Notes under the pieces: generated by a model
What the model saw: the letters and a program-made list of their open reading frames with translations, nothing else
Told to the model about the DNA's origin: nothing
The model's database searches: none
DNA from: Candidatus Baldrarchaeum yapensis
GTDB lineage: Archaea > Asgardarchaeota > Baldrarchaeia > Baldrarchaeales > Baldrarchaeaceae
Assembly (NCBI GenBank): GCA_016840465.1
Contig: JAEOSH010000038.1
Coordinates: 1 to 21,774 of the forward strand
Length of the DNA stretch: 21,774 nucleotides
Direction of reading: 5' to 3'
Program-made: the position numbers and the translations under genes
Shown: positions 1,747 through 20,487 of the stretch, piece after piece
Numbering within the stretch: the stretch's first letter is position 1
Layout of the letters: each line of letters starts with the position of its first letter

Positions 1747-2775
1747 ATGAGCACGGTCACCCGCAAGCTCCAGTTGACCGGGGGGAGCACGATTATCGTC
1801 TCACTTCCCAAAAAGTGGGTATCCTCACTGGGAATGAGGCCGGGGGATGAGGTCACTCTCGTCCTCAATAGGGATGGAACCATCACCGTCATGCCTAAGA
1901 CTCTCCACAGGACGAATGAAAAGCCCGAGGCTGTAATAAGGGTAACGAGGGACATGAGCCCGGAGGTCGCGGTAAGGGAATTCATAGGCTACTACCTCGT
2001 CGGCTACGACGTTATAAGGGTAGAATTTGGAAATGACACGGAGATGCACAGATCCCAGATAAAAGAAGCAATACGAGACAAGCTTATAGGCGTGGAAGTA
2101 ATGGAGGAGTCCGAAGTACATCTCGTAGCCAGGTGTCTCATAACCTACACCGAGTTCTCCCTAAACGACGCCCTTAACAGAATGAGGGCCGTCACAAGCC
2201 TAATGTTAAGAGATGCCGTAAAAGCGCTAATCTCATACAACATAGACCTTGCCGAGGATGTGTGCCGGCGGGATAACGACGTTGACAGGCTCTACTTGTT
2301 TATAGTAAGACAACTAAAAACCCTGATACGCCAGCCTCATACTCTCTCTGACCTCGGTCTCAGAACAGTAAGAGATTGTCTCGGCTACCGCCTTGTTGCA
2401 AAAACTGTCGAGAGAATCGCTGACCATGCAATGCGCATTGCCGAGGTTTCGAAGAGCACGAGACTCCCCAAAGATGAGGATCTGTTCTGGAGGATAGAAA
2501 AGGCCCGTGATCTCGCAATAGATCTCTTCAATGAATCGCTATCTGCGTTCATAAAACTGGATAAACAACTCGCTCATGAGGTCATCGAGCGCTCCAAGGA
2601 GATGTCCTTCCTCGAAGAGGAAATACTCGAAAATCTTCTCAAACACACGGAACTCGATGCAAAGGACGTGGCAAATCTCAGGCTAGCATTTGAAAGTTTG
2701 AGGAGGTCGGCAGAGTACTCGGCGGATATTGCAGAAATAGCAATAAACATGGCAATCCTGGAACCCGTCCTCTAA
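1747..2775 (+). CDS. phoU: Archaeal phosphate uptake regulator PhoU with N-terminal AbrB/SpoVT DNA-binding domain
   Basis: N-terminal RKLQLTGGSTIIVSLPKKWV (AbrB-like) and two PhoU repeats (RDNDVDRLY, VERIADHA, LRRSAEYSADIAE); next to the pst genes. Confidence 0.93.
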   Translation: MSTVTRKLQLTGGSTIIVSLPKKWVSSLGMRPGDEVTLVLNRDGTITVMPKTLHRTNEKPEAVIRVTRDMSPEVAVREFIGYYLVGYDVIRVEFGNDTEMHRSQIKEAIRDKLIGVEVMEESEVHLVARCLITYTEFSLNDALNRMRAVTSLMLRDAVKALISYNIDLAEDVCRRDNDVDRLYLFIVRQLKTLIRQPHTLSDLGLRTVRDCLGYRLVAKTVERIADHAMRIAEVSKSTRLPKDEDLFWRIEKARDLAIDLFNESLSAFIKLDKQLAHEVIERSKEMSFLEEEILENLLKHTELDAKDVANLRLAFESLRRSAEYSADIAEIAINMAILEPVL

Positions 2776-4175
2776 CCCTCTCTCTTCAGCCATGTCGAAT
2801 ACTCTAAGGAGCGCGCAAGCACGTTAACCGCCCGTTCAGGCGTAAAGTAGCATGGTATACCTAACTTTTCCACTTCCTGAACGTCTCCTATTACGATGTC
2901 ACCCATGGGGACGCAGAAGACGACAGGCTTTCTCACGCATCCCGCCTCCATAATCTCGTGTACCGCCTGCCCAACCTCCTTAACCCTCATCGCTGGAACT
3001 ATGCATATTATTCCGTCCACGTTTCTGTTGTGCAGTAAGATCTCAACCCCGCGCTGATACTGTTCGGCAGTCACTAAGAAACTCAGGTCGAGGGGATTGA
3101 AGCAACTGGTCCATGGGAATGCTATCTGCTTCAACACTTCGAGGGTGTTATCATCGTATGCCGCGAGTTCTAAGCCGAGTGAACTCGCATGGTCGACGCT
3201 CAGAATCCCCATGCTACCGCTATATGAAATTATAGATAGCCTCGGACCCCGCATCGGAGGTTGCATTGAGAAAAATTTCAGCAAATCAAAGAACTCCTCC
3301 AGAGAATCCGCCTTCAATGCTCCGCTCTGTCTCAACGCAACATCCCATATTGTGGCATCTCCGGCCAGTGAGGCCGTGTGAGAAAGTGTAAGTTGGCTAC
3401 CTGCTGCGGTCTTTCCACCCTTGAGGACAACCACCGGCTTCTTCCGGGAAACAGCCCTCAATACTCTCATAAGCCTCCTTCCATCTCGGGTTCCCTCAAT
3501 GTACATGCCTATTACGCTGGTCTCCGGGTCCTCCGCGAGAAACTCCAGAAAATCCGTCTCGTCGAGGTCAGCCTTGTTTCCTATCGTTATCAGCTTGCTT
3601 ATCCCCCACGGGTAAACCTCCAGCATCCCAGCAGCGAATATCCCCGCTTGCGCAATTATACTTATAGTGCCTTTCCTTAGGCCCGGAAGAGGCGCAAATG
3701 TGGTTGCCAGATTGCAATAGGTGTTGACAAATCCGGCACAGTTTGGCCCAAGCACGCGTATGCCATATTTTCTCGCAACTTCAACTATTTTCGACTGAAG
3801 TTCCCTCCCATATTCTCCCATTTCTGCAAATCCCGCAGCCTCTATGACCACGAACTTCACACCCTTCTCTCCGCATTGCTCAAGTGCTCCCAGAACCTTG
3901 TCGGCGGGGATTATGATTATGGATAAATCTATTTCACTAGGAACGTCAAGTACCGATGGATAACATTTCAAACCCAAAATTTCCTTCTCTTTTGGGTTTA
4001 TCGGGAACACTTTCCCCGGAAATCCGAGACTCACAAGGTTCTTGAGAATGTTATGCCCAAGCTTCGCCGGATTGGAGGAAGCACCTATCACTGCAACCGA
4101 TTTTGGATAGAAAAAAGACCTCAACTCCTCATACTTTCTCTTGATGTCCTCGGGCTCTATATTGTCATCCGCCAT
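2772..4175 (-). CDS. acdA: ADP-forming acyl-CoA synthetase, alpha subunit (CoA-binding and ligase domains)
   Basis: FFYPKSVAVIGAS, PINP, GPNC, GNKADLDE and KGGKT..G...SHTASLAG (phospho-His); no ATP-grasp beta domain; GGTGA upstream of the ATG. Substrate unknown. Confidence 0.88.
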   Translation of the reverse strand: MADDNIEPEDIKRKYEELRSFFYPKSVAVIGASSNPAKLGHNILKNLVSLGFPGKVFPINPKEKEILGLKCYPSVLDVPSEIDLSIIIIPADKVLGALEQCGEKGVKFVVIEAAGFAEMGEYGRELQSKIVEVARKYGIRVLGPNCAGFVNTYCNLATTFAPLPGLRKGTISIIAQAGIFAAGMLEVYPWGISKLITIGNKADLDETDFLEFLAEDPETSVIGMYIEGTRDGRRLMRVLRAVSRKKPVVVLKGGKTAAGSQLTLSHTASLAGDATIWDVALRQSGALKADSLEEFFDLLKFFSMQPPMRGPRLSIISYSGSMGILSVDHASSLGLELAAYDDNTLEVLKQIAFPWTSCFNPLDLSFLVTAEQYQRGVEILLHNRNVDGIICIVPAMRVKEVGQAVHEIMEAGCVRKPVVFCVPMGDIVIGDVQEVEKLGIPCYFTPERAVNVLARSLEYSTWLKREG

Positions 4176-4757
4176 CGCCGATCATCACCGGAGAGTTTTC
4201 TCCTCATAAAACATGTGAGCGGAAAACGCAGTAAATATCTCTCAAGATCAAGATGTTTATTTAGGCTAATACATCCAACTTATAACGATTTCCAAGGAGA
4301 AACCTTCAGAAAAATGATATAAATTGATCAATTATTCGGTAATTGTCGAGAAATAAAAAGACGAATTTTCAAAAATCACATATCCAATCAACTGTTATCA
4401 TATCTATTTCGAAAAACATAGTTTTTCTATATACAGTACTGCTCTGCAGAACTGTGGATACTGCTGGAAGAAATGTTCTATCCCGCCCTCCGACAAAGGA
4501 TCTTGCCCTTAGGGTCAATATTCACAACCAATTCCCCTATGAGAAAAATTGACTCACATGTACGTAAAATTTGTGCTGAAGTTGAGAACCAAGACTTATA
4601 ATTGGCAATCAGCAAATGAACGTTATGCTACATCGGATGATACCGTAAAAATCGTTGATCTCCCAAGACGTTACAACTTTAATTACCGAGAACATGCGTA
4701 TTGTTTTTTGATGATGTTTTGGAATGCGAACTTGTTTTTTCAGAAGTCTGCTGTAAA

Positions 4758-4807
4758 TATGGGCATTTTTCTTTGCCCATAAATAAAAATGAAGCAAATA
4801 TGCTTCA
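4758..4807. promoter_or_regulatory. Two adjacent inverted repeats, candidate operators upstream of the maoC-maoC-abfD cluster
   Basis: TATGGGCA-N8-TGCCCATA (4758-4781) and TGAAGCA-N4-TGCTTCA (4790-4807), followed by a TATA-like TTATAA at 4817-4822. Confidence 0.45.
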
Positions 4808-4911
4808 CCAATGAAGTTATAAGCACTATTACTCGGAATTTTCAGCGCACTGGGATAACTGCTCCCTGCGCGGATACTACGAGGCTATACGAGTAATCTT
4901 CTTTAGTATGG

Positions 4912-5370
4912 GTGATGTACATGCCGGGCATGTACTTCGAGGATTTCGAAGAGGGTCAAGAGTTTGAAACACCCGCCAGAACGGTCACAGAAGCCGATAT
5001 TATAAACTTCGCCGGGATAAGCGGAAACTTCAACCCACTGCACATAGACGAAGAGTTCGCAAGAAAAACGAGATTTGGAAGAAGGATAGCGCAGGGTGCT
5101 CTAACATTTGCAATATTAACGGGGCTGTGGGCAAGGCACGGCTTTTTGGAAGGAACGGTAGAGGCGCTATACGGCATGGATAGAATGAGGTTTACTCGCC
5201 CTGTCTTCATTGGTGACACCCTCCGAGCAAGGATAAGAGTTGTAAAGAAGGAGGACAGAGGAAATTGTGGCTTGGTAACCATCCATAATGAGGTTGTGAA
5301 CCAGCGCGGCGAGATAGTACTGGTATGCGATGCAAAGCTACTATTCAAGAAACGGAAGAATAGTAAGTAA
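4912..5370 (+). CDS. MaoC-family (R)-specific enoyl-CoA hydratase-like protein, copy 1 (catalytic Asp replaced by Asn)
   Basis: YFEDFEEGQEF, RTVTEADIINFA, SGNFNPLHID and RFTRPVFIGDTL hot-dog-fold motifs. The true start is probably ATG 4915 or 4921. Confidence 0.9.
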   Translation: MMYMPGMYFEDFEEGQEFETPARTVTEADIINFAGISGNFNPLHIDEEFARKTRFGRRIAQGALTFAILTGLWARHGFLEGTVEALYGMDRMRFTRPVFIGDTLRARIRVVKKEDRGNCGLVTIHNEVVNQRGEIVLVCDAKLLFKKRKNSK

Positions 5371-5476
5371 GCCCAAACATTCCATCACACATTTTTCTGT
5401 CTCATTTGCTTCTCGTAACAAAGAATAATTACCTTACCATTTCCATTATTTTTGTAAAGATGTGCGTGGGGTCCCT

Positions 5477-5923
5477 ATGCCGGGTATGTACTTCGAGGAT
5501 TTTGAAGAGGGTCAGGAGTTCGAAACCCCTGCTAGGACAATCACGGAGGCTGATATCGTAAACTTTGCGGGAATAAGCGGAGACTTCAACCCTCTACACA
5601 TAGATGAGGAGTTTGCGAAAAGGTCGAGATTCGGGAGAAGAATTGCACATGGTGCCCTTACGTTTGCAATAATGACAGGGTTGTGTGCAAGGCTAGGAAT
5701 GCTAGAGGGAACCGTCGAGGCATTTTACGGCGTTGACAAACTGAGGTTCACGAGACCCGTGTTCATTGGAGACACACTAAAGGTCAGAGTAAGAGTCGTG
5801 AAAAAGGAAGATAGAGGAAATGCGGGGCTTGTGACTTTCCATAATGAGGTTGTGAACCAGCGCGGTGAGGTAGTGCTCGTCTGCGATACAAAGATTCTGT
5901 TTAGGAAACGAAAATCCGCCTAA
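5477..5923 (+). CDS. MaoC-family (R)-specific enoyl-CoA hydratase, copy 2 (intact motif)
   Basis: Hydratase motif SGDFNPLHID, plus RIAHG. Start placed at ATG 5477 by alignment to copy 1 (the ORF track starts at 5462). Confidence 0.92.
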   Translation: MPGMYFEDFEEGQEFETPARTITEADIVNFAGISGDFNPLHIDEEFAKRSRFGRRIAHGALTFAIMTGLCARLGMLEGTVEAFYGVDKLRFTRPVFIGDTLKVRVRVVKKEDRGNAGLVTFHNEVVNQRGEVVLVCDTKILFRKRKSA

Positions 5924-5974
5924 CGCTCAGACAACATTTATCAGCCGTCACAATATTATCTCTTATTTAGCAAG

Positions 5975-7447
5975 ATGGGGGGTACTTTCATGGTTTTGAT
6001 GACGGGAGAGGAGTACATTAAGAGTCTTAAGAGAAGGAAGAAGCTTGAAGTGTATGCTTTCGGAGAAGAGATAGACGATCCGGTGGAGCATCCCCTACTT
6101 CGCCCGTCCCTTTATTCGATCGTAGAAACCTATGAAATCGCGCATGACGAAAAGTACAAGGATCTAGCAACGGCTAAATCGCACCTCATCGGGGAAATAA
6201 TAAACAGATTCACTCACATCCACCAAAGTGTCGACGACCTCGTAAAGAAGGTGAAGCTTCTGAGAGTACTGTGTCAGCGGACCGGAACCTGCGTGCAGAG
6301 GTGTGTCGGGTGGGACGCGCTCAACGCCCTGTACATAACAACCTACGAAATAGATGCAAAGCACGGCACTAACTACCACGAGAGGTTCAAGAACTACCTG
6401 AAATACGTGCAGCAGAATGATCTGATGTGCGCTGGCGCGATGACCGATGTTAAAGGCGATAGAAGCTTGCGCCCATATGAACAAAAGGATCCCGACCTCT
6501 ATGTGAGAATTGTGGAAAGGCGGGATGACGGGATAGTTGTCAGGGGAGCCAAAGCCCATACCACGGGGGCAGTTCACTCCCACGAGATAATAGTTCTGCC
6601 GACACGTGCAATGACCGAGAACGACAGAGACTACGCGGTTGCATTTGCAATACCGACCGACACCGAGGGCGTAAAGATGATAGTCGGAAGACAGATGGGC
6701 GACCGGAGAAGGCTTGAGGAGGAGTGGTTCGACCTGGGAAACTACAAATACGGTGCGACTGGACACGAGACGCTGACAATATTTGATGACGTGTTCGTTC
6801 CGTGGGATAGGGTCTTCATGTGCGGGGAAGTGGAGTTCGCTGGAATGGTCGTAGAAACCTTCTCGTCATACCACAGGCAGAATTATGGAGGGTGCAAGGC
6901 GGGGATGGGAGATGTACTCATAGGGGCCAGCGCACTTGCGGCGCTCTACAACGGCGTTCCAAATGCCCCTCATATAAGGGAGAAACTTGTGGAAATGGTA
7001 CACATGAATGAGACCCTATATGCGTGCGCTCTCGCATGCAGCTACGAGGGATATAAAACACCTTCGGGCGCCTACAGACCGGAGCCCCTGTTGGCAAACG
7101 TATGCAAGTTGAACGTCACGAGGTTTCCATATGAAATTGCTAGGCTTTCACACGACATAGCGGGAGGGTTAGTTGCAACAATGCCCAGCGAGAAGGATCT
7201 TCGCAACGAGAAACTAGGGAAGTACATAGTGAAGTACCTGCAGGCGAACGCCAAGTACCCGACCGAACACAGGATGCGCGTCTTTAGGTTGATAGAGAAC
7301 ATGACCATGAGCACGGGATACCTGATAGAGTCCCTCCATGGGGCGGGGTCTCCCCAAACGCAGAGAATAATGATTTCGAGGCTGGCCAATTTCAAGGAGA
7401 AAATGAAGATGGCCGCACGGCTGGTCGGAGTGCCGTTCGAAGAGTAA
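5975..7447 (+). CDS. abfD: 4-hydroxybutyryl-CoA dehydratase / vinylacetyl-CoA isomerase
   Basis: Fe-S ligand pattern TGTCVQRC and YHRQNYGGCK, plus AMTDVKGDRS, VRGAKAHTTG and ESLHGAGSPQ. The start may be ATG 5990. Confidence 0.92.
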   Translation: MGGTFMVLMTGEEYIKSLKRRKKLEVYAFGEEIDDPVEHPLLRPSLYSIVETYEIAHDEKYKDLATAKSHLIGEIINRFTHIHQSVDDLVKKVKLLRVLCQRTGTCVQRCVGWDALNALYITTYEIDAKHGTNYHERFKNYLKYVQQNDLMCAGAMTDVKGDRSLRPYEQKDPDLYVRIVERRDDGIVVRGAKAHTTGAVHSHEIIVLPTRAMTENDRDYAVAFAIPTDTEGVKMIVGRQMGDRRRLEEEWFDLGNYKYGATGHETLTIFDDVFVPWDRVFMCGEVEFAGMVVETFSSYHRQNYGGCKAGMGDVLIGASALAALYNGVPNAPHIREKLVEMVHMNETLYACALACSYEGYKTPSGAYRPEPLLANVCKLNVTRFPYEIARLSHDIAGGLVATMPSEKDLRNEKLGKYIVKYLQANAKYPTEHRMRVFRLIENMTMSTGYLIESLHGAGSPQTQRIMISRLANFKEKMKMAARLVGVPFEE

Positions 7448-7462
7448 ACGAGTTAATAATTG

Positions 7463-7954
7463 TTACCATACGATCTCTTTCAGTGTGAGCACTTCCACGC
7501 CGATAAGTTCTTTTATTCTCTTCCTCTTTCTTGCTAGGCTTCTCTCATCGGTCGTGACAACAGGAACATCGCATTTGAATGCCAAAATCAAATAGGGAAC
7601 ATCTTTTGGCTCTATTTCCAATATTTGTGCGATCATCAGTATCTCAGGCCTTCTTCTCATCATGTTAATCAGATCATCGGTAATAGGATGAATAAAGTCC
7701 TTCACGACGTTGTCCGAATTTAAAATTCTCCAAAAAGATCTTTCAAGTTCTAAGGGGTCACGACGGATTTCTATGGCCACCCTCTTCAACACCCTCGTAA
7801 CCTCAGCAACTACATAGCTGTTTACTACGACTTTACATTCTCCTTTAAGGCACCTTGAAATCAGGTCCATTGCGTCCCGAGAAGTCCCTAAAAGTCCATA
7901 AATCCACACATTAGCGTCGAGTACTAACGTTTTCGCCTTTGAGGAGTTTTTCAA
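7463..7954 (-). CDS. vapC: PIN-domain (VapC-like) toxin
   Basis: LVLDANV, VVAEV, PKDVPYL and VVTTDER (acidic PIN residues); overlaps the upstream RHH gene. Confidence 0.82.
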   Translation of the reverse strand: MKNSSKAKTLVLDANVWIYGLLGTSRDAMDLISRCLKGECKVVVNSYVVAEVTRVLKRVAIEIRRDPLELERSFWRILNSDNVVKDFIHPITDDLINMMRRRPEILMIAQILEIEPKDVPYLILAFKCDVPVVTTDERSLARKRKRIKELIGVEVLTLKEIVW

Positions 7955-9088: not shown

Positions 9089-9598
9089 ATGACTATGGAT
9101 GAGGGCCCGGGTCTGAGAAAAGGCCTGGAGCACGTGCCGGAGAAGTTCAGGGACGCGGTTTCGGAGTTTTTAGAATTTTTGAAGGAGAAGTTTGGGGAAA
9201 AACTGGTATCCGTCGTGGTATATGGATCCGTTGCGCGGAGCACGTACAGGGAGGGGAGTGATGTCGACATCCTTGTGGTCTGCGAGAACTTCCCGGAAAG
9301 ACTTCTGGAGCGGATAGACCTGTTCGTGGACAAGAAGTTCGAGATCGCGGTCGAGAGGGGAGTGAGGATTTCCGTGATGCCCCTCTCCATGGAGGAGGCG
9401 AGATGCAACCAGCCAATATACCTCGACATGGCGTTCGAGGGGATCATACTCTACGATAAGAACGGATTCATTGAAAACGTGCTTAAGAACCTCAGGAGGA
9501 AACTTGAGGAGCTGGGCGCTGAAAGGGTAAGGTACGGGCGCTGGTACCTGTGGAAGCTAAAGCGGAACATCAAAGTGGGAGAGGTAATAAGGATATGA
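9089..9598 (+). CDS. Minimal nucleotidyltransferase (MNT) antitoxin
   Basis: YGSVARSTYREGSDVD is GSx10DxD; ATGA overlap with the downstream HEPN gene. Confidence 0.9.
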   Translation: MTMDEGPGLRKGLEHVPEKFRDAVSEFLEFLKEKFGEKLVSVVVYGSVARSTYREGSDVDILVVCENFPERLLERIDLFVDKKFEIAVERGVRISVMPLSMEEARCNQPIYLDMAFEGIILYDKNGFIENVLKNLRRKLEELGAERVRYGRWYLWKLKRNIKVGEVIRI

Positions 9599-10051: not shown

Positions 10052-10347
10052 CTAGAAAGCTATTTGTCGAAAATCTTCGGAAAATCTGAATTGGTTAAGA
10101 ATATCAATCGATGCGATAGTGGCTTGGGGCCATTTTCAAGCTATTGCAAGTTGTACATTTTCTTGCGGGAGTCCTATTCTATGAGTGCATATCGCACGTC
10201 TGTGGCACATTGATGATGCCGTACTGCCCAGCGCTGGGTACATCGACCGCCCGTGTACTATTTTCTCCCGCGATCGTGCGATCTGCACTTTTTATCTCAA
10301 ACACCTTATTATAGACCGTCAGCGAAAAATTCCTTGAGGTGCGTCTC

Positions 10348-11286
10348 ATGAATTTGGAAAGGGTTCGAAAGGCCTTAGAAAAGTTGGGGCTTCCAGGTCG
10401 TGACCTCTACGAACTTCCCACGTCGGAGAAGAGGTTCCCCGACGGGTGTCATTATCGTATTGAGATATCCGGCGTCGAAAGGCCGAACGTTCTTGAGGCC
10501 GTGATAAAGGAGTCGGAAAAGCGTGATATGCCGGTGCACAGACTGATCAGTATGGTGATGGGCTCCACGCTCCTCAGCGAGAAGGAGTTGAGAGAGTTTG
10601 CGCAAATGGCGGCGGACGCCAAGATGGAGGTGATAGTAACCCCAGGACCCCGCCCAACATGGGATGTTGGAAGACAAATAATAACCTCTGAGGGCGCCCT
10701 CTCGGGGCTGAGGCATAGAGGAGCGGATCAACTCGCATACGTGATCGCTGACATAATGAGGGCCATAGACATAGGATTTCGGGGATTCCTCGTGACTGAT
10801 GAGGGCCTTCTGTGGGTACTAAACGAGTTAAAGAAGATGGGTGAAATTCCGAAGGACGTCGTGTTCAAGGTATCGATATTCGCCGGGCACGGAAACCCTG
10901 CGGGGGCAAAAGTTCTAGAGATGTTGGGTGCGTCCACATTCAACCCGGTGGGAGATCTAACCCTCCCGCAACTTGCGGCGATGAGAAAGGTGATCAATAT
11001 ACCCATGGACATACATGTGTACCTGTTCGACTCATTCGGAGGCTTCGTGAGGTTCTACGAGTGCCCCGAGATCATAAGGGTCGCCGCGCCGTGCTACTTC
11101 AAGATAGAGCCGGGTCCCAGCGTTGCAACACTGTACAAGCCGTGGGCAAACCCCGACCACCTGGCGTTCCTCGCTAGGGAGAAGGTGAAGTACGCGGAGA
11201 TCATAAGGGACATTGTTGAAAAGAACTACCCCGAGGCAAAACTCTCGGAAAGAGGTCCCTCCGATCTCGCAATTCCAAAACCATAA
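10348..11286 (+). CDS. Uncharacterised TIM-barrel protein, peptidase-U32-like family
   Basis: Clean 313-aa ORF with GAGGT before ATG 10348. Segments SEKRFPDG.HYRIEI, GFRGFLVTDEGLLWVL, FKVS...GHGNP, DLTLPQLAAMR...IPMDIH and GGFVRFYE.PEI resemble proteins usually labelled U32-like. Recognised from memory; function unknown. Confidence 0.6.
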   Translation: MNLERVRKALEKLGLPGRDLYELPTSEKRFPDGCHYRIEISGVERPNVLEAVIKESEKRDMPVHRLISMVMGSTLLSEKELREFAQMAADAKMEVIVTPGPRPTWDVGRQIITSEGALSGLRHRGADQLAYVIADIMRAIDIGFRGFLVTDEGLLWVLNELKKMGEIPKDVVFKVSIFAGHGNPAGAKVLEMLGASTFNPVGDLTLPQLAAMRKVINIPMDIHVYLFDSFGGFVRFYECPEIIRVAAPCYFKIEPGPSVATLYKPWANPDHLAFLAREKVKYAEIIRDIVEKNYPEAKLSERGPSDLAIPKP

Positions 11287-11301
11287 GGAAGATGGTGATG
11301 G

Positions 11302-12714
11302 ATGGCAAGGTTGCACGAAGTTAAAGGAATCCTTCCCGCCCTCGTTACACCTTTCAAAAAGGACGAAAGTATAGACGAACAGGCCCTCAGAGACCTGGTG
11401 AACTTCGTCATAGAGAAGGGAGTGCACGGAGTCGTTCCCGTGGGAACCACGGGTGAGTTCATGTACATGAAGCCGGAAGAGAGGGAAAAAGTGTTCAAAA
11501 TAGTGGTGGACGAGGTAAACGGAAGAGTTCCCGTAATAGCCGGATGCGGAGCCAGCGGAACCGATATTGCACTAGATCTCGTAAAGAGAGCGGAAGATAT
11601 TGGGGCGGACGCCGCACTCGTTGTTTCTCCATTTTACATTGCACCATGGGACAAGGGCGTATTCGAACACTTCCGCAGGATATGTTCGTCCACGGACCTG
11701 CCGATCGTCGTTTACAACATACCTCAGTGTACCGGATACTTCATAAGCGGAAAAGTGATCGAGGATCTGGCCGAATTCGAGAACGTCATAGCGCTCAAGG
11801 ATAGTAGTGGGAGCATTGCGTACATACTCGAGGTTATCGAGAGGACCGAAGGTAAGTTGAACGTACTGGTCGGGCATGACGAGATCGTAATGGCGGCCCT
11901 CATGGCGGGGGCTTCCGGGGCAATCCTCGCATCCGCAAACGTCATACCCGAAGTTTGGTGCCAGTTGTACGACGCCGTTCAACGAGGAGATATCACGAAG
12001 GCCCGGAAGCTTCAACTTGGTGCACAAAAGGTTGCAAGGATAATCACCAGATACGGCGGACCGGTGGCCGTTAAGGCCGCATTGGGAATGCGCGGCATCA
12101 AGGTTGGTAAGACCAGGAGGCCTTTGGTTAGCGGTGGGGTTCTTTCCTGGGAAGACAGGGAGGAGTTAAGGCTGGAGCTGGAGAAACTCGGAGTGCTGAA
12201 GCCCTCTTACGGAAGGGTTGAGGAGTTTCCAAAGGAGGAATTTTCCGATATTGGGCTTACCCCTGAAGTCATCGGAAAACACGGCATGCGAGTTGCCAAA
12301 TGTAGCGCAGGATCTGGAACCGAAGAGGTCATTCTAAGCGCGGTAGTCGGAACCCTAGAGAGCCCCATTTCTGAGGCGTTTGCCCTCGCGTTGTCACTAC
12401 CCAGAGAGGGGTATGAAGCACTGACCGCAATACTGGAACCGAACCTCATGGTACGGCCGGCAACGCTCATAGTTCCCGCAGTTAAAGTCGAAAATATGAG
12501 GCAGGCAAGCATGATTTACGGCCCTGTGCAGGCGGCTGTTGCCAAGGCAGTTGCGGACTCTTTAGAGGAAGGAACGATTCCTAAGGAGTTCGCGGAGACG
12601 GGACTGATGATAGTTAAGGTGAGAATACACCCGAACGCCTTGAATAGAAAGATGATCTACGGGAACACGTACGAGGCCATGCGGACCATAATTAAGGAAA
12701 TATGGGGAGGATGA
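11302..12714 (+). CDS. DapA/NAL-family class I aldolase fused to a C-terminal Fae (formaldehyde-activating enzyme) domain, subunit A
   Basis: Aldolase motifs GTTGEF, PFY, YNIP and LKDSSG. From ~12286 a Fae-like domain: [38 protein letters not shown]. Confidence 0.88.
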
Positions 12715-12720
12715 GTTGTT

Positions 12721-14190
12721 ATGAGCAAGAAGTTCTGGCCGAGAGGAGTAATACCGGCTCTGGTCACTCCATTTACGAAAGACGGCAAGATAGATGAGGA
12801 GTCCTTCAGGAGGCTAATCGATCACCTTATAGAGCAAGGGGTCACCGGAATAGTCCCCGCCGGAACGACCGGGGAGTTCATGTACATGAAGCCTGAGGAG
12901 CGCAAAAGGGTGATCGAAATAGCAGTGGAACAGGCGGACGGCAGGGTTCCCGTAATTGCTGGAACGGGGGCGGCATCAACAAAATTAGCGTTAGAATTTA
13001 CAAAACATGCCGAGGATGTTGGAGCGGATGCGGCACTGGTAGTAACTCCGTACTATGTGCGCCCGACCGATAAGGAGGTATATGAGCACTTCGAGAAAAT
13101 CGCAACATCCGTCGGCATACCCATTGTCATGTACAACATACCGCAGTGCACGGGGTTCATGATGCAGTGGTGGCTGGTGGAGGGACTCGCTGAAATAGAT
13201 AATATAGTGGGAATTAAGGACTCCAGCGGTGACATGCGCTTTCTGTGCTCGCTTTTCGAGAAGGTGGGCGGTAAGATTTCCATAATATGTGGGCATGATG
13301 AGATTGCCGCTGCAGCGCTATTGGCTGGTGCGGATGGTGTGATCCTCGCGAGTGCAAACGTTCTGCCCGACATATGGTTGAAGATCTACAATGACGTTAA
13401 GGAGGGGAGAATCGAAAGTGTTAGGAAGACCCAGCGCAGAATGCAAAAACTGCTCAGGATTCTGGTGAGGGGCGGCGCCCTTGCAATAAAAGAGGCACTC
13501 AGAATGATGAGCCTACCGAGCGGTTACCCCAGACTTCCACTAATTCTCGGTGACGTGTTCGGTTATGAGCATTGGGAGGAGATGAGGATAGAGCTGGAGG
13601 GCATCGGAAAGATTCCAAAGTCTGAGGTGACATTTGAGGTACGCGGAAAAACCATCAAGAGTATGGTGCCGGCAATTCCGGAGACTCCAAGAAAAATTTC
13701 GAATCTGACGTTTAGGGTGGGAGAAGGCTTCGCCGGCCCTCCGATATTCGAGGTTGCACATATAGACCTCATCCTGGGACTTAAGGACGGCCCAGTTGGT
13801 AGAGTGTGCGAAAAAATTCTAAAGCAACCGCAAAAGGGACACGAACCGAAAGTGGTGATGGAGCGCCCGTTCACGGTCTTGGTTCCAACTGTCACCGTGA
13901 GGACGGAGAGACACGCGAGATTGGTATACGAGCATGCCTTAAACGGCGTAAAAATGGGTGTGGAAGCGAGTATAAATGATGGATTTCTGCCGGAGCCGTT
14001 GCTTGACGATCTGGTGCTAATAGCAAATGTGTTTGTGCACCCGGTTGCATCTAATGCGAGAAGGGTCATGCTGAATAACTTTAAGGCCATGAGATATGCT
14101 ATCAGGAAAGCAATCGAGGGAAGACCGACAGCAGACGCGATATTCATGTACAAGGAGTCCGCACGTCACCCGTTCAGGTATACACCCTGA
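12721..14190 (+). CDS. DapA/NAL-family class I aldolase fused to a C-terminal Fae domain, subunit B
   Basis: Aldolase motifs GTTGEF, PYY, YNIP and IKDSSG. From ~13711 a Fae-like domain: VGEG..G...EVAHIDLILG.KDGPVG, NVFVHP, AIRKAIEG.P, RHPF. Confidence 0.9.
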   Translation: MSKKFWPRGVIPALVTPFTKDGKIDEESFRRLIDHLIEQGVTGIVPAGTTGEFMYMKPEERKRVIEIAVEQADGRVPVIAGTGAASTKLALEFTKHAEDVGADAALVVTPYYVRPTDKEVYEHFEKIATSVGIPIVMYNIPQCTGFMMQWWLVEGLAEIDNIVGIKDSSGDMRFLCSLFEKVGGKISIICGHDEIAAAALLAGADGVILASANVLPDIWLKIYNDVKEGRIESVRKTQRRMQKLLRILVRGGALAIKEALRMMSLPSGYPRLPLILGDVFGYEHWEEMRIELEGIGKIPKSEVTFEVRGKTIKSMVPAIPETPRKISNLTFRVGEGFAGPPIFEVAHIDLILGLKDGPVGRVCEKILKQPQKGHEPKVVMERPFTVLVPTVTVRTERHARLVYEHALNGVKMGVEASINDGFLPEPLLDDLVLIANVFVHPVASNARRVMLNNFKAMRYAIRKAIEGRPTADAIFMYKESARHPFRYTP

Positions 14191-14225: not shown

Positions 14226-14948
<723 letters not shown>

Positions 14949-14968: not shown

Positions 14969-16798
14969 CTACTTTTTTCTTACAATTTTTGACATTGCAA
15001 TGTGAACCGTAGCGTTCAGTAGAAGGCCGAGCAACACCACAAGCGATGAGAACACCATCAGGTACGTTATCGATATCAGCACCGTGAAGAAACCAAACGC
15101 CAGGCTCCATTCGTCGTTCTCGGGGAAGTACCACCCCAACGTCGCGCCCCACTTGACGTAGAACCACCCGTAGACCAGAGCATTCACGATGATGATCAAT
15201 AGCAGGCCGAATAGCGATGCAAACAGGACCCTGTAAACTCTATCCTTCTCCCCGATTATGAACCTCGATGCAACACCTCCCACAACCCCGGAAACCACCG
15301 CACCTACTAACGTGAAGAGCATGATTCCGTCGTAAAACTGGTCCAGATCTTCGATTATGCTTATTGAGAAGTACCACCCTGCTCCGAAGAACGCCGACCA
15401 GAAGCCGACATAGAAGAGTGCAGCGAAGATCGCCGACGCAAATGTGACCCTCACATCGATCCTGTCCCTATAAAGGTAACATAACGCGATGATTGCCGAT
15501 AATATGACCATAATTATCGTCATCACAACCCTCTGGCGCTGCTCGATCTCCATCGCAAGTTTCAACTTCCTCATTCCCTCAAAGATCGTCGAGTACTTCT
15601 GCACAAGCTTGCTTGCTGCATTGTAGGCTTCCTGATACTTTCCGTTGAGGTAAAGCTGCTCCACGGCCTCGAGTTCGTGAGTCCCGTTAACTAAGGCGTT
15701 AACATACTCCTCCGGCATTTCCAAGATTCCAACGTTGAGTTGGTCGCTAAGCCAGGTCATCATGTTGTACTTTATCCTCGCAAGCGAGATCTCGTAAAGT
15801 GTCTTCCTCTGAACATCCTCCTCAAAGGCCTCGTAGAGAACCCTTCCCGTGGTCGCCGAGGGGAGCCTGAGCCCCAAGAAGTAGCAGATCGTCGGCGCAA
15901 TGTAGTCCTGATACACGTAATCGGATATCGTTACGTTCTTCCGAACCTTGGGACCGCTGAACACGAGAAGTATCTTACGTGCGACCTCCTCGGAACCCCC
16001 ATGCCCTCCCCTGTCTATATGTCCATGATCACTGAAGAGCACGATGAGGGCGTCGTTGTAGATTCCGGCATCCTTAAGCGCGTCTATTATCTTTCCGATG
16101 TACTGGTCCGTCTTCTCTATCGCCTTCTTGTACTGCTCGCTCACTCCACCGTACATGTGCCCGTACTCGTCAACCGTGCTGAAGTGTATCACCATGAACG
16201 TCGGTTTCACGTTCTTTATTATCTCAATAGACGTGTTGAAAACGGCCTCGTCCCACTCCTCGATTCCACCGTAGTCCTTGAGGGGTGGACCAACGTAATC
16301 CACGTACCTACCGAAGTATTGAGCGACGCCGGTATCCCCAATGTGCGCGGTCGTCCCATTGGCCTCCTTCACTATCCTGAAGATGTTGTCTATCTCCATT
16401 CCGCCGGGAAACTTCTGCCAGTTCGAAACCACTCCACTGATCGCGGGCCTCGTGCCCGTAAGTAGACACACAGTTCCGGGGTGGGAGAGCGAGGGAGTGT
16501 AGCAGAAAGCGTTGGAAAAGTATACGCCGTTCCCGAGGAGTTCATCCATGTTCGAAGTGTTCGCCTTCTTGACCATGTCGGGACGTGCGCCGTCTATGAA
16601 GATAACAATCACGTGGTTTCCGTAAGGTTGTGGTTTCTCCAAGAGCCCAGTAGTCGGCAACTTGCTGAAGTCCAAAACTGGCTCATAATCGGCCCAACTC
16701 AGGAAAACATCAACCGCACAGTAGTAGAATATCTGGAATGTCGCTGCGAACAACAAGGCAAAAGTTAGCACCAGCACCACGTACCTCGCTACCTTCAT
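14969..16798 (-). CDS. Membrane-anchored alkaline-phosphatase-superfamily (NPP/PIG-like) phosphotransferase
   Basis: Metal ligands IFIDGARPD, VDEYGH, SDHG and GGHGG; nucleophile segment PSLSHPG; one N-terminal and about 5-6 C-terminal hydrophobic helices. Confidence 0.85.
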   Translation of the reverse strand: MKVARYVVLVLTFALLFAATFQIFYYCAVDVFLSWADYEPVLDFSKLPTTGLLEKPQPYGNHVIVIFIDGARPDMVKKANTSNMDELLGNGVYFSNAFCYTPSLSHPGTVCLLTGTRPAISGVVSNWQKFPGGMEIDNIFRIVKEANGTTAHIGDTGVAQYFGRYVDYVGPPLKDYGGIEEWDEAVFNTSIEIIKNVKPTFMVIHFSTVDEYGHMYGGVSEQYKKAIEKTDQYIGKIIDALKDAGIYNDALIVLFSDHGHIDRGGHGGSEEVARKILLVFSGPKVRKNVTISDYVYQDYIAPTICYFLGLRLPSATTGRVLYEAFEEDVQRKTLYEISLARIKYNMMTWLSDQLNVGILEMPEEYVNALVNGTHELEAVEQLYLNGKYQEAYNAASKLVQKYSTIFEGMRKLKLAMEIEQRQRVVMTIIMVILSAIIALCYLYRDRIDVRVTFASAIFAALFYVGFWSAFFGAGWYFSISIIEDLDQFYDGIMLFTLVGAVVSGVVGGVASRFIIGEKDRVYRVLFASLFGLLLIIIVNALVYGWFYVKWGATLGWYFPENDEWSLAFGFFTVLISITYLMVFSSLVVLLGLLLNATVHIAMSKIVRKK

Positions 16799-20055: not shown

Positions 20056-20487
20056 ATGTTAATAGAGTCCGACATCCTAGTCGCGTACCTAAAAAAGGAG
20101 GACTGGCTGAAAAGCGTTGCAACGCGCGTAATTGAAGACGCAAAAAGTGGGAAGTTCGGAAGGGTGCAGGTATCGACGGAGGTTTTTCACGAACTATACT
20201 ATGTCTTCTCCGAGTATACTTCTCTAGACGTGATAGCGACGGACTTTGCCCATATAATCGGGTTGAAAAACGTGGAGATAGTTCCTGCAACTGCAGAGAT
20301 ATACCTTTCGGCGATAAACCTGATGCTCATGTATAATATTTCATCGATATTCGACGCAATCTACGCCGCCACAGCCCTTTCTCCCATGGTGCCCGATAAC
20401 ACCATTCTTTCGACCGATAGAGTCTACGACAGAATACCCGGGATAAAAAGGATAGACCCGAGGTCGATGTACTCCGAGCACATATGA
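20056..20487 (+). CDS. vapC: PIN-domain toxin VapC
   Basis: LIESDILVAY, STEVFHE, SIFDAIYAATA, ILSTDRVYD; GAGGGG upstream. Confidence 0.88.
   Translation: MLIESDILVAYLKKEDWLKSVATRVIEDAKSGKFGRVQVSTEVFHELYYVFSEYTSLDVIATDFAHIIGLKNVEIVPATAEIYLSAINLMLMYNISSIFDAIYAATALSPMVPDNTILSTDRVYDRIPGIKRIDPRSMYSEHI

Follow-up and report, generated by a model that had tools for sequence, protein, structure and literature searches.

What reaction is served by two tandem genes that each join a DHDPS-family aldolase barrel to a C-terminal Fae domain, and by the uncurated barrel gene that precedes them? The question is raised by positions 10348-14190 of a 21,774-nucleotide stretch of Candidatus Baldrarchaeum yapensis DNA, contig C65 of a host assembly of 2.27 Mb that is 96% complete; this whole stretch is called the window. 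The feature, here genes g1, g2 and g3, is real, uncharacterised and mislabelled in databases. With evenly balanced confidence, we propose that g2 and g3 make up a heteromeric, pterin-linked 2-oxo-acid hydroxymethyltransferase that would favour pyruvate and supply 4-hydroxy-2-oxobutanoate (HOB) for homoserine, with g1 as its companion. The genes and domains are the following.

10348-11286, + strand: g1, a 312-residue, Cys-poor TIM-barrel enzyme of an uncurated family; the start is ATG, and an alternative upstream GTG at 10339 is possible
11302-12714, + strand: g2, 470 residues, a type A DHDPS-Fae fusion
11320-12132, + strand: DHDPS-family domain of g2, with GTTGE, FY, YNIPQC and Lys166 within ALKDSSG
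12313-12696, + strand: Fae domain of g2, C-terminally truncated (profile positions 8-135 of 159)
12721-14190, + strand: g3, 489 residues, a type B DHDPS-Fae fusion
12742-13542, + strand: DHDPS-family domain of g3, with GTTGE, YY, YNIPQC and Lys166 within GIKDSSG
13717-14175, + strand: Fae domain of g3, matching the full profile

Open reading frame (ORF) analysis of the window bore out the tight spacing of the three genes that had been noted from the sequence, with gaps of 15 nt between g1 and g2 and 6 nt between g2 and g3. Shine-Dalgarno-like purine-rich motifs were found before g2 (GGTGA, 11294-11298) and before g3 (GGGGAGG, 12704-12710).

Domain content of the fusion proteins

The original prediction had described g2 and g3 as two DapA-family barrels with a C-terminal Fae domain, and both Pfam and NCBIfam profiles agreed. 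In Pfam, g2 matched DHDPS with E 1.8e-76 (residues 7-277) and Fae with E 3.8e-37 (residues 338-465), and g3 matched DHDPS with E 2.9e-81 (residues 8-274) and Fae with E 2.9e-31 (residues 333-485). The Fae scores were 128 bits for g2 and 109 bits for g3 against a cut-off of 27 in Pfam (PF08714), and 126 and 122 bits against a cut-off of 118 in NCBIfam (TIGR03126). Motif conservation, observed directly like the domain content, indicated that the aldolase parts keep the Schiff-base Lys, Thr-Thr and Tyr motifs: GTTGE, (F/Y)Y, YNIP and the Lys of (A/G)(L/I)KDSSG are all present in both proteins, and the Lys motif is kept in 219 of 223 members of the fusion family.

Relatives of g2 and g3 are labelled DapA or Fae in databases, the former because they pass the generic dapA model, TIGR00674, in which the two proteins themselves score 242 and 245 bits over a cut-off of 206. 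The DapA label is a mis-annotation, since the equivalent of Arg138 is replaced and the genome has no DapB. In the YNIPQ-C-TG motif both proteins have Cys where DapA has Arg, and the position is C, V, A or T family-wide; it aligns with Arg138 of E. coli DapA, the residue that binds the carboxylate of aspartate semialdehyde. DapB was not found in the 96% complete genome, whose sole PF01113 match (20.7 bits, below cut-off) we read as the NAD-binding domain of an aspartate-semialdehyde dehydrogenase (ASD) protein, as it lies in the same 359-residue frame as a match to the ASD C-terminal domain. An ordinary dihydrodipicolinate synthase, the reading that could have emptied the prediction, was rejected on the Cys and the missing DapB; in addition, every homologue found carries the fused Fae domain. 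The two fusions are the only DHDPS-family genes of the host, and no PF02548 (PanB) match was found in g1-g3 or anywhere in its genome. Literature searches on the fusion, on U32-like aldolases and on the Fae active site returned nothing relevant and no paper describing the fusion, which agrees with the earlier statement that no characterised enzyme has this architecture.

Fae elements divided between two paralogues

Considering that the two fusions stand in tandem, we compared them with their relatives by alignment and a tree of 59 fusions and by motif counts on 223. Three clades were resolved by the tree and the counts: a single form (S), type A (g2-like) and type B (g3-like). The single form, of about 493 residues, has all the Fae elements, namely the AHID motif, the EPNL loop and a C-terminal HPF tail, and its Fae domain is complete, scoring about 190-215 bits. 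Type A retains the EPNL loop only and is without the His/Asp motif and the C-terminal tail. Type B keeps the AHID motif (His347 and Asp349 in g3) and the tail (RHPFRY in g3) and has the EPNL loop deleted. The same pattern, loop only versus His and tail, was seen when g2 and g3 were aligned to the solved Fae structure 1Y5Y, in which we take the His to be catalytic and the pterin to lie between neighbouring subunits. The complete set of elements is therefore absent from g2 or g3 singly and is reached across the pair or in single-type relatives, and the elements retained are invariant within each clade.

The complex of the A and B Fae domains was modelled and gave an ipSAE of 0.87, against 0.00 for the best control; 58 of 80 solved complexes and 2 of 110 mismatched pairs came up to this mark. 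The runs agreed in at least 86% of contacts, with partner pLDDT of at least 87. In the modelled interface, A residues 377-385 (the loop) face B residues 347, 349 and 469-485 (the His, the Asp and the tail). The score may partly echo the solved Fae homo-oligomer, a pentamer, and the model, in which the surviving parts meet at one interface, supports A/B binding without proving it. The tandem arrangement of the prediction stood. The two fusions are not redundant copies; they are half-degenerate paralogues that complement each other and probably combine in one heteromer. If the heteromer that we infer does form, the divided Fae site would plainly exemplify subfunctionalisation, with an obligate heteromer as its outcome.

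Alternation of the fusion with PanB

Gene order and co-occurrence were read directly from the genomes. Of 74 loci anchored on g1, 29 have a DHDPS-Fae fusion as the next gene and 13 have PanB. The fusion occurs in 37 of 50 g1 genomes, and PanB is present in 12 of the other 13; in 10 of those 12 it is an extra copy besides a PanB-PanE pair. In genomes with two PanB copies the canonical one adjoins PanE elsewhere, and the g1-linked copies form a clade of their own, nearer to archaeal and Chloroflexi sequences. Because these copies are a separate clade, g1 and PanB appear to travel together. No transporter or regulator is conserved at g1 loci, and the contexts look housekeeping.

At nine loci of Bipolaricaulota, Fraserbacteria and 'Thermotogae' metagenome-assembled genomes (MAGs), two thiolase-like genes, accompanied by two DUF35/OB-fold genes and a flavin reductase, are divergently oriented to the g1-PanB pair. 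After the pair comes a convergent gene of about 750-790 residues with a C-terminal PTA_PTB domain, which by its size might encode a malic enzyme.

The g1 barrel and a second barrel family

The g1 protein has no Pfam or NCBIfam match. It is 72-81% identical to hypothetical proteins of Asgard archaea, Bathyarchaeia, Aigarchaeota, Nitrososphaeria and Anaerolineae, and 65-70% identical to copies in Bipolaricaulota, Fraserbacteria and further Chloroflexota; the family was found in 416 species-representative genomes. Its AF2 model (pLDDT 84) is a (beta/alpha)8 TIM barrel whose fold matches are weak and flat, comprising CutC, class II aldolases and the U32 protein Mk0906 (5D88). The last aligned with Z 13.8 and rmsd 3.1 over 186 residues at 17% identity, among many barrels at Z 12-15. 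The U32 fold matches had TM 0.5-0.6, in Atlas and AFDB U32 clusters reached TM 0.5-0.9 against the g1 model, and CutC and class II aldolases scored equally. With such a flat list of TIM barrels, reading the function of g1 from fold searches was rejected.

The name 'U32-like' given to g1 held indirectly only. Relatives at 29-46% identity reach PF01136 with 19-33 bits (cut-off 22.4), and among named folds U32 proteins and class II aldolases come closest; g1 itself has no PF01136 match at E of 1 or less, and its profile found only noise among PDB sequences (E 0.06-0.17). Neither the close nor the broad alignment of g1 has an invariant Cys or a Cys cluster, and conserved Cys residues are the Fe-S ligands of characterised U32 members. 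Distant relatives of g1 adjoin stand-alone DHDPS genes in operons for acid sugars and tricarboxylates, which suggests that the family acts on 2-oxo acids made or cleaved by DHDPS-type aldolases. A role as a substitute for ketopantoate reductase was also considered and rejected, since most g1 genomes have PanE and the barrel shows no sign of a dinucleotide-binding fold. One could speculate that the g1 barrel decarboxylates hydroxymethylated oxaloacetate, because it shows weak BKACE matches and many conserved Arg residues and has aspartate aminotransferase, malic-enzyme-like and fumarase neighbours. At three Asgard loci (L083:3717-4853, L088 and L089), g1 is flanked by a PLP (pyridoxal phosphate) barrel resembling D-threonine aldolase and 3-hydroxy-D-aspartate aldolase, and a CitG-family gene and an M20 peptidase lie 3' of the fusion.

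Of 121 Asgard genomes sampled, 55 have the fusion and 21 have g1. That g1 is an obligatory partner of every fusion was contradicted by the 34 fusion-bearing genomes without it, and the contradiction was then resolved by a second family, G1L, of about 430 residues. G1L belongs to no Pfam family and is 63-90% identical among the sampled Asgard genomes (L106:6252-7559; loci L108-L137). Either g1 or G1L is present in 52 of the 55 fusion-bearing genomes, the two never together, and in 11 loci G1L lies directly upstream of a single-type fusion and co-directional with it. The two families aligned over 228 columns (hhalign), and the near-invariant g1 residues Glu39, Lys174, Ser176, Asn199, Asp221/His223 and Lys252 align with invariant residues of G1L. 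The G1L model has a helical N-terminal extension followed by a barrel, whose best named Atlas match is a 316-residue U32-tinged cluster of the same kind as that of g1. G1L is thus a probable remote homologue of g1 with the same role. Five genomes with G1L only were checked and have one PanB each, not adjacent to G1L.

In the Asgard family f7 (L103:8448-13519 and L105:1103-6162), two large co-directional ORFs of 873 and 816 residues stand before an A/B fusion pair. Neither matches a Pfam domain or resembles G1L, nor do the two resemble each other; an ArgE/DapE-type M20 deacylase is encoded near them.

The pterin carrier

Taking into account that Fae condenses formaldehyde with tetrahydromethanopterin (H4MPT), the genome check for H4MPT genes put forward with the prediction is of importance. 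The host has Mch and a separate 416-residue frame with a Fae domain, read as Fae-Hps type; it is consequently not a genome lacking any H4MPT pathway. As a universal carrier H4MPT did not survive, because 12 of the 15 Chloroflexota with the A/B pair have no detectable Mch. In those twelve hosts the Fae-type domain appears to work without an H4MPT pathway, and the carrier is probably folate, or none.

Homoserine context and the proposed reaction

In the reaction that we propose, type A g2 and type B g3 would form one heteromeric enzyme, in which each subunit contributes a functional 2-oxo-acid aldolase barrel of class I, with a lysine Schiff base. The half-degenerate Fae domains would pair, and the EPNL loop of A with the His/Asp motif and tail of B would make one pterin/formaldehyde site. 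A C1 unit at the formaldehyde level would be moved between methylene-H4MPT (or, in many bacteria, a folate) and the C3 position of a 2-oxo acid, so that the heteromer would do the work of a PanB-type hydroxymethyltransferase without being homologous to it. Pyruvate would be the preferred substrate and give HOB, and an aspartate-type aminotransferase would convert HOB to homoserine; g1 would be an obligatory companion acting on the same 2-oxo-acid pool.

Neighbouring genes are consistent with such a pathway. In Asgard genomes with G1L only (f5 and f20 among those fetched), G1L is followed by an aspartate-type aminotransferase and homoserine dehydrogenase (HSD), and often then by aldehyde:ferredoxin oxidoreductase (AOR); in f5, f20 and f22 the single HSD match lies 2-9 kb from G1L. 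Aminotransferases 38-46% identical to the G1L-linked one follow g1 and PanB in a Bathyarchaeon, and others of this kind are co-directional with a single fusion in other Bathyarchaeia. In f7 the gene next to G1L and divergent from it encodes a threonine synthase-PadR fusion, and in Bipolaricaulota formate-tetrahydrofolate (THF) ligase precedes g1 and PanB. In the families with fusion and barrel (f7, f12, f13, f19 and f25), an ASD-family gene was found in 4 of 42 genomes and HSD in 1, whereas 39 have ThrC. The 50 g1 genomes come from four phyla; 28 of them are without HSD, among them 8 of the 9 Bipolaricaulota or Fraserbacteria with g1-PanB, and 20 of these 28 have ThrC over the cut-off. The pterin-linked hydroxymethylation of pyruvate, or cleavage of HOB, that had been predicted thus receives comparative support from the PanB alternation and from the aminotransferase, HSD and threonine synthase neighbours, whereas its substrate and direction, like its physiological role, are what we infer.

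More tentatively, and as a possibility that we would rather doubt than assert, the system may be a naturally occurring, pterin-linked pathway that starts from pyruvate (or oxaloacetate) and a C1 unit of the Wood-Ljungdahl pathway and leads through HOB to homoserine. The DHDPS-Fae fusion would serve it in H4MPT hosts and a dedicated PanB in folate hosts, and the route would replace aspartate kinase, ASD and HSD in many Asgard archaea, Bathyarchaeia, Bipolaricaulota and Chloroflexota. The same intermediates are known from engineering: in the synthetic homoserine cycle the HOB-forming and HOB-aminating steps are engineered and promiscuous, and HOB is described as a non-native metabolite (PMC8879981).

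Several observations weigh against the hydroxymethyltransferase proposal and its link to homoserine. The host has a canonical asd-hom cluster on contig C48, so the module is not needed for homoserine there. Four module-less Asgard families (f2, f6, f11 and f18) are without ASD and HSD and yet have ThrC; the argument from the ASD/HSD gap is therefore not exclusive. Related genomes are not independent samples, and gene absence in MAGs is weak evidence. The homology of g1 and G1L rests on an hhalign E of 5.5e-4 (probability 30%), the aligned invariant residues and the fold. The Chloroflexota without Mch belong here as well. E. coli PanB reportedly does not use pyruvate (Powers and Snell 1976), and because of this, if the pair is equivalent to PanB, its substrate could be a 2-oxo acid that is substituted at C3. 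Finally, ketopantoate may be covered in the host by the following operon, and the module is not obviously essential there.

L101:5289-7543, contig C54: HPS-RraA fusion of 437 residues (OMP-decarboxylase/Hps-type barrel and RraA-like aldolase), overlapping the start of PanE (320 residues)

This fusion is a candidate folate-free ketopantoate-forming enzyme.

Alternative explanations

The catabolic direction, which was the first choice of the original prediction, is unlikely in our estimate. Here the barrel or the aminotransferase would supply a 4-hydroxy-2-oxo acid, the aldolase would cleave it, and Fae would trap the formaldehyde as methylene-pterin for the Wood-Ljungdahl pathway. The chemistry is identical and reversible, the hosts are Wood-Ljungdahl anaerobes and AOR genes recur beside the module; the acid-sugar and tricarboxylate operons in which distant g1 relatives stand with DHDPS genes are catabolic too. 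However, the loci of g1 itself look housekeeping and lack a conserved transporter or regulator, and the loss of ASD and HSD with ThrC retained fits synthesis better.

Distinctly unlikely, in turn, is that the pair is a strict substitute of PanB, hydroxymethylating alpha-ketoisovalerate to ketopantoate for coenzyme A (CoA) in hosts that use H4MPT. The fusion does occupy the PanB slot beside g1, 25 of the 37 fusion-bearing g1 genomes are without PanB, and the host itself lacks PanB and yet has PanE and the archaeal phosphopantothenate synthetase. Against this, the HPS-RraA fusion at PanE is another candidate for the ketopantoate step in the host, PanB is found in the remaining 12 fusion genomes too, for the most part paired with PanE, and bacteria keep a PanB-PanE pair alongside the g1-linked PanB. 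The neighbours indicate the aspartate/homoserine family and not CoA, and a hindered ketone would be an unusual substrate for a class I aldolase.

It is improbable, further, that the Fae domains no longer bind pterin and serve as a scaffold, for oligomerisation or formaldehyde handling, of an aldolase whose substrate is free formaldehyde or some other aldehyde. The partial degeneration of both domains and the lack of Mch in most Chloroflexota hosts would agree with it. The elements that survive are nevertheless invariant in each clade and meet at one modelled interface, and the single form keeps a complete, high-scoring Fae; the alternative partner, PanB, is pterin-dependent, and formate-THF ligase is co-transcribed with g1 and PanB in Bipolaricaulota.

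That g2 and g3 are ordinary 4-hydroxy-tetrahydrodipicolinate synthases can practically be dismissed: the TIGR00674 scores and their being the sole DHDPS-family genes of the genome favour the label, and the replaced Arg138, the missing DapB and the universal Fae fusion oppose it.

Comparison with known systems

By comparison with the archaeal Fae-Hps protein, the proposed heteromer shares a Fae domain fused to an aldol-type TIM barrel with formaldehyde as co-substrate, and the logic of a formaldehyde handover between aldolase and H4MPT. It differs in that Fae is C-terminal in g2 and g3 and N-terminal in Fae-Hps, that the partner is a DHDPS-family Schiff-base 2-oxo-acid aldolase instead of the OMP-decarboxylase-family Hps, and that Fae is split functionally between two paralogues in the window. 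With PanB (EC 2.1.2.11, PF02548) the pair shares the gene slot beside g1 and, as proposed, the net chemistry from methylene-pterin and a 2-oxo acid to a 4-hydroxy-2-oxo acid. There is no relation in sequence or fold. PanB is of the Mg-dependent class II type, and its one active site also holds the pterin; the substrate of g2/g3 is probably not alpha-ketoisovalerate. In fold and in their catalytic motifs (Lys, Tyr, Thr-Thr), g2 and g3 agree with the DHDPS/NAL class I pyruvate aldolases (DapA, NanA, KDG aldolase, YagE/YjhH), from which they are separated by the lack of the DapA-specific Arg, by the C-terminal Fae and by a host without the diaminopimelate (DAP) pathway. As for g1, it has the TIM barrel in common with peptidase U32 proteins (RlhA, TrhP, UbiU/UbiV and Mk0906), to whose profile its distant relatives extend, and is without the PF01136 match, the conserved Fe-S Cys cluster and the U32 C-terminal domain. 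The synthetic homoserine cycle of E. coli, with promiscuous RhmA and aminotransferases (PMC8879981), runs through the same proposed intermediates, from pyruvate and C1 to HOB and homoserine; it is engineered and uses free formaldehyde and a class II aldolase, whereas g2/g3 would be a dedicated natural pterin-linked enzyme.

If the proposal is true, a gene pair labelled DapA/Fae in hundreds of uncultured archaeal and bacterial species would be a new type of C1-transfer enzyme, and an uncurated 312-residue family, 65-81% identical across two domains of life among the close homologues compared, would gain a pathway context. Energy-limited subsurface anaerobes would make homoserine, the precursor of threonine, methionine and isoleucine, from pyruvate and Wood-Ljungdahl C1 without ATP or NADPH, and metabolic reconstructions of Asgard archaea and Bathyarchaeia would change. 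Synthetic methylotrophy would gain a dedicated HOB-forming enzyme, and the engineered homoserine cycle a natural counterpart.

Surroundings of the operon

An archaeal-type triose-phosphate isomerase gene (14262-14948, + strand) begins 71 nt downstream of g3 with no obvious terminator between them, and it may be co-transcribed with g3; its position after the fusion is not conserved at other loci. Convergent with it is a gene at 14969-16798 (- strand) for a 609-residue protein of the alkaline-phosphatase superfamily, with phosphodiesterase, sulfatase and metalloenzyme matches. Upstream of the operon, an acyl-CoA cluster (2772-7447) comprises an ADP-forming acyl-CoA synthetase alpha-like gene (- strand), two MaoC-type hydratases and a gene of the HpaB/4-hydroxybutyryl-CoA-dehydratase family. 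At two Bathyarchaeia loci (L012 and L013) an HpaB-family gene stands immediately 3' of g1, and genes for acyl-CoA synthetases are found repeatedly in the vicinity of g1. Probable toxin-antitoxin components, namely two PIN-domain genes and one for a minimal nucleotidyltransferase (MNT/MntA-like), lie around the operon at 7463-7954 (- strand), 9089-9598 (+ strand) and 20056-20487 (+ strand).

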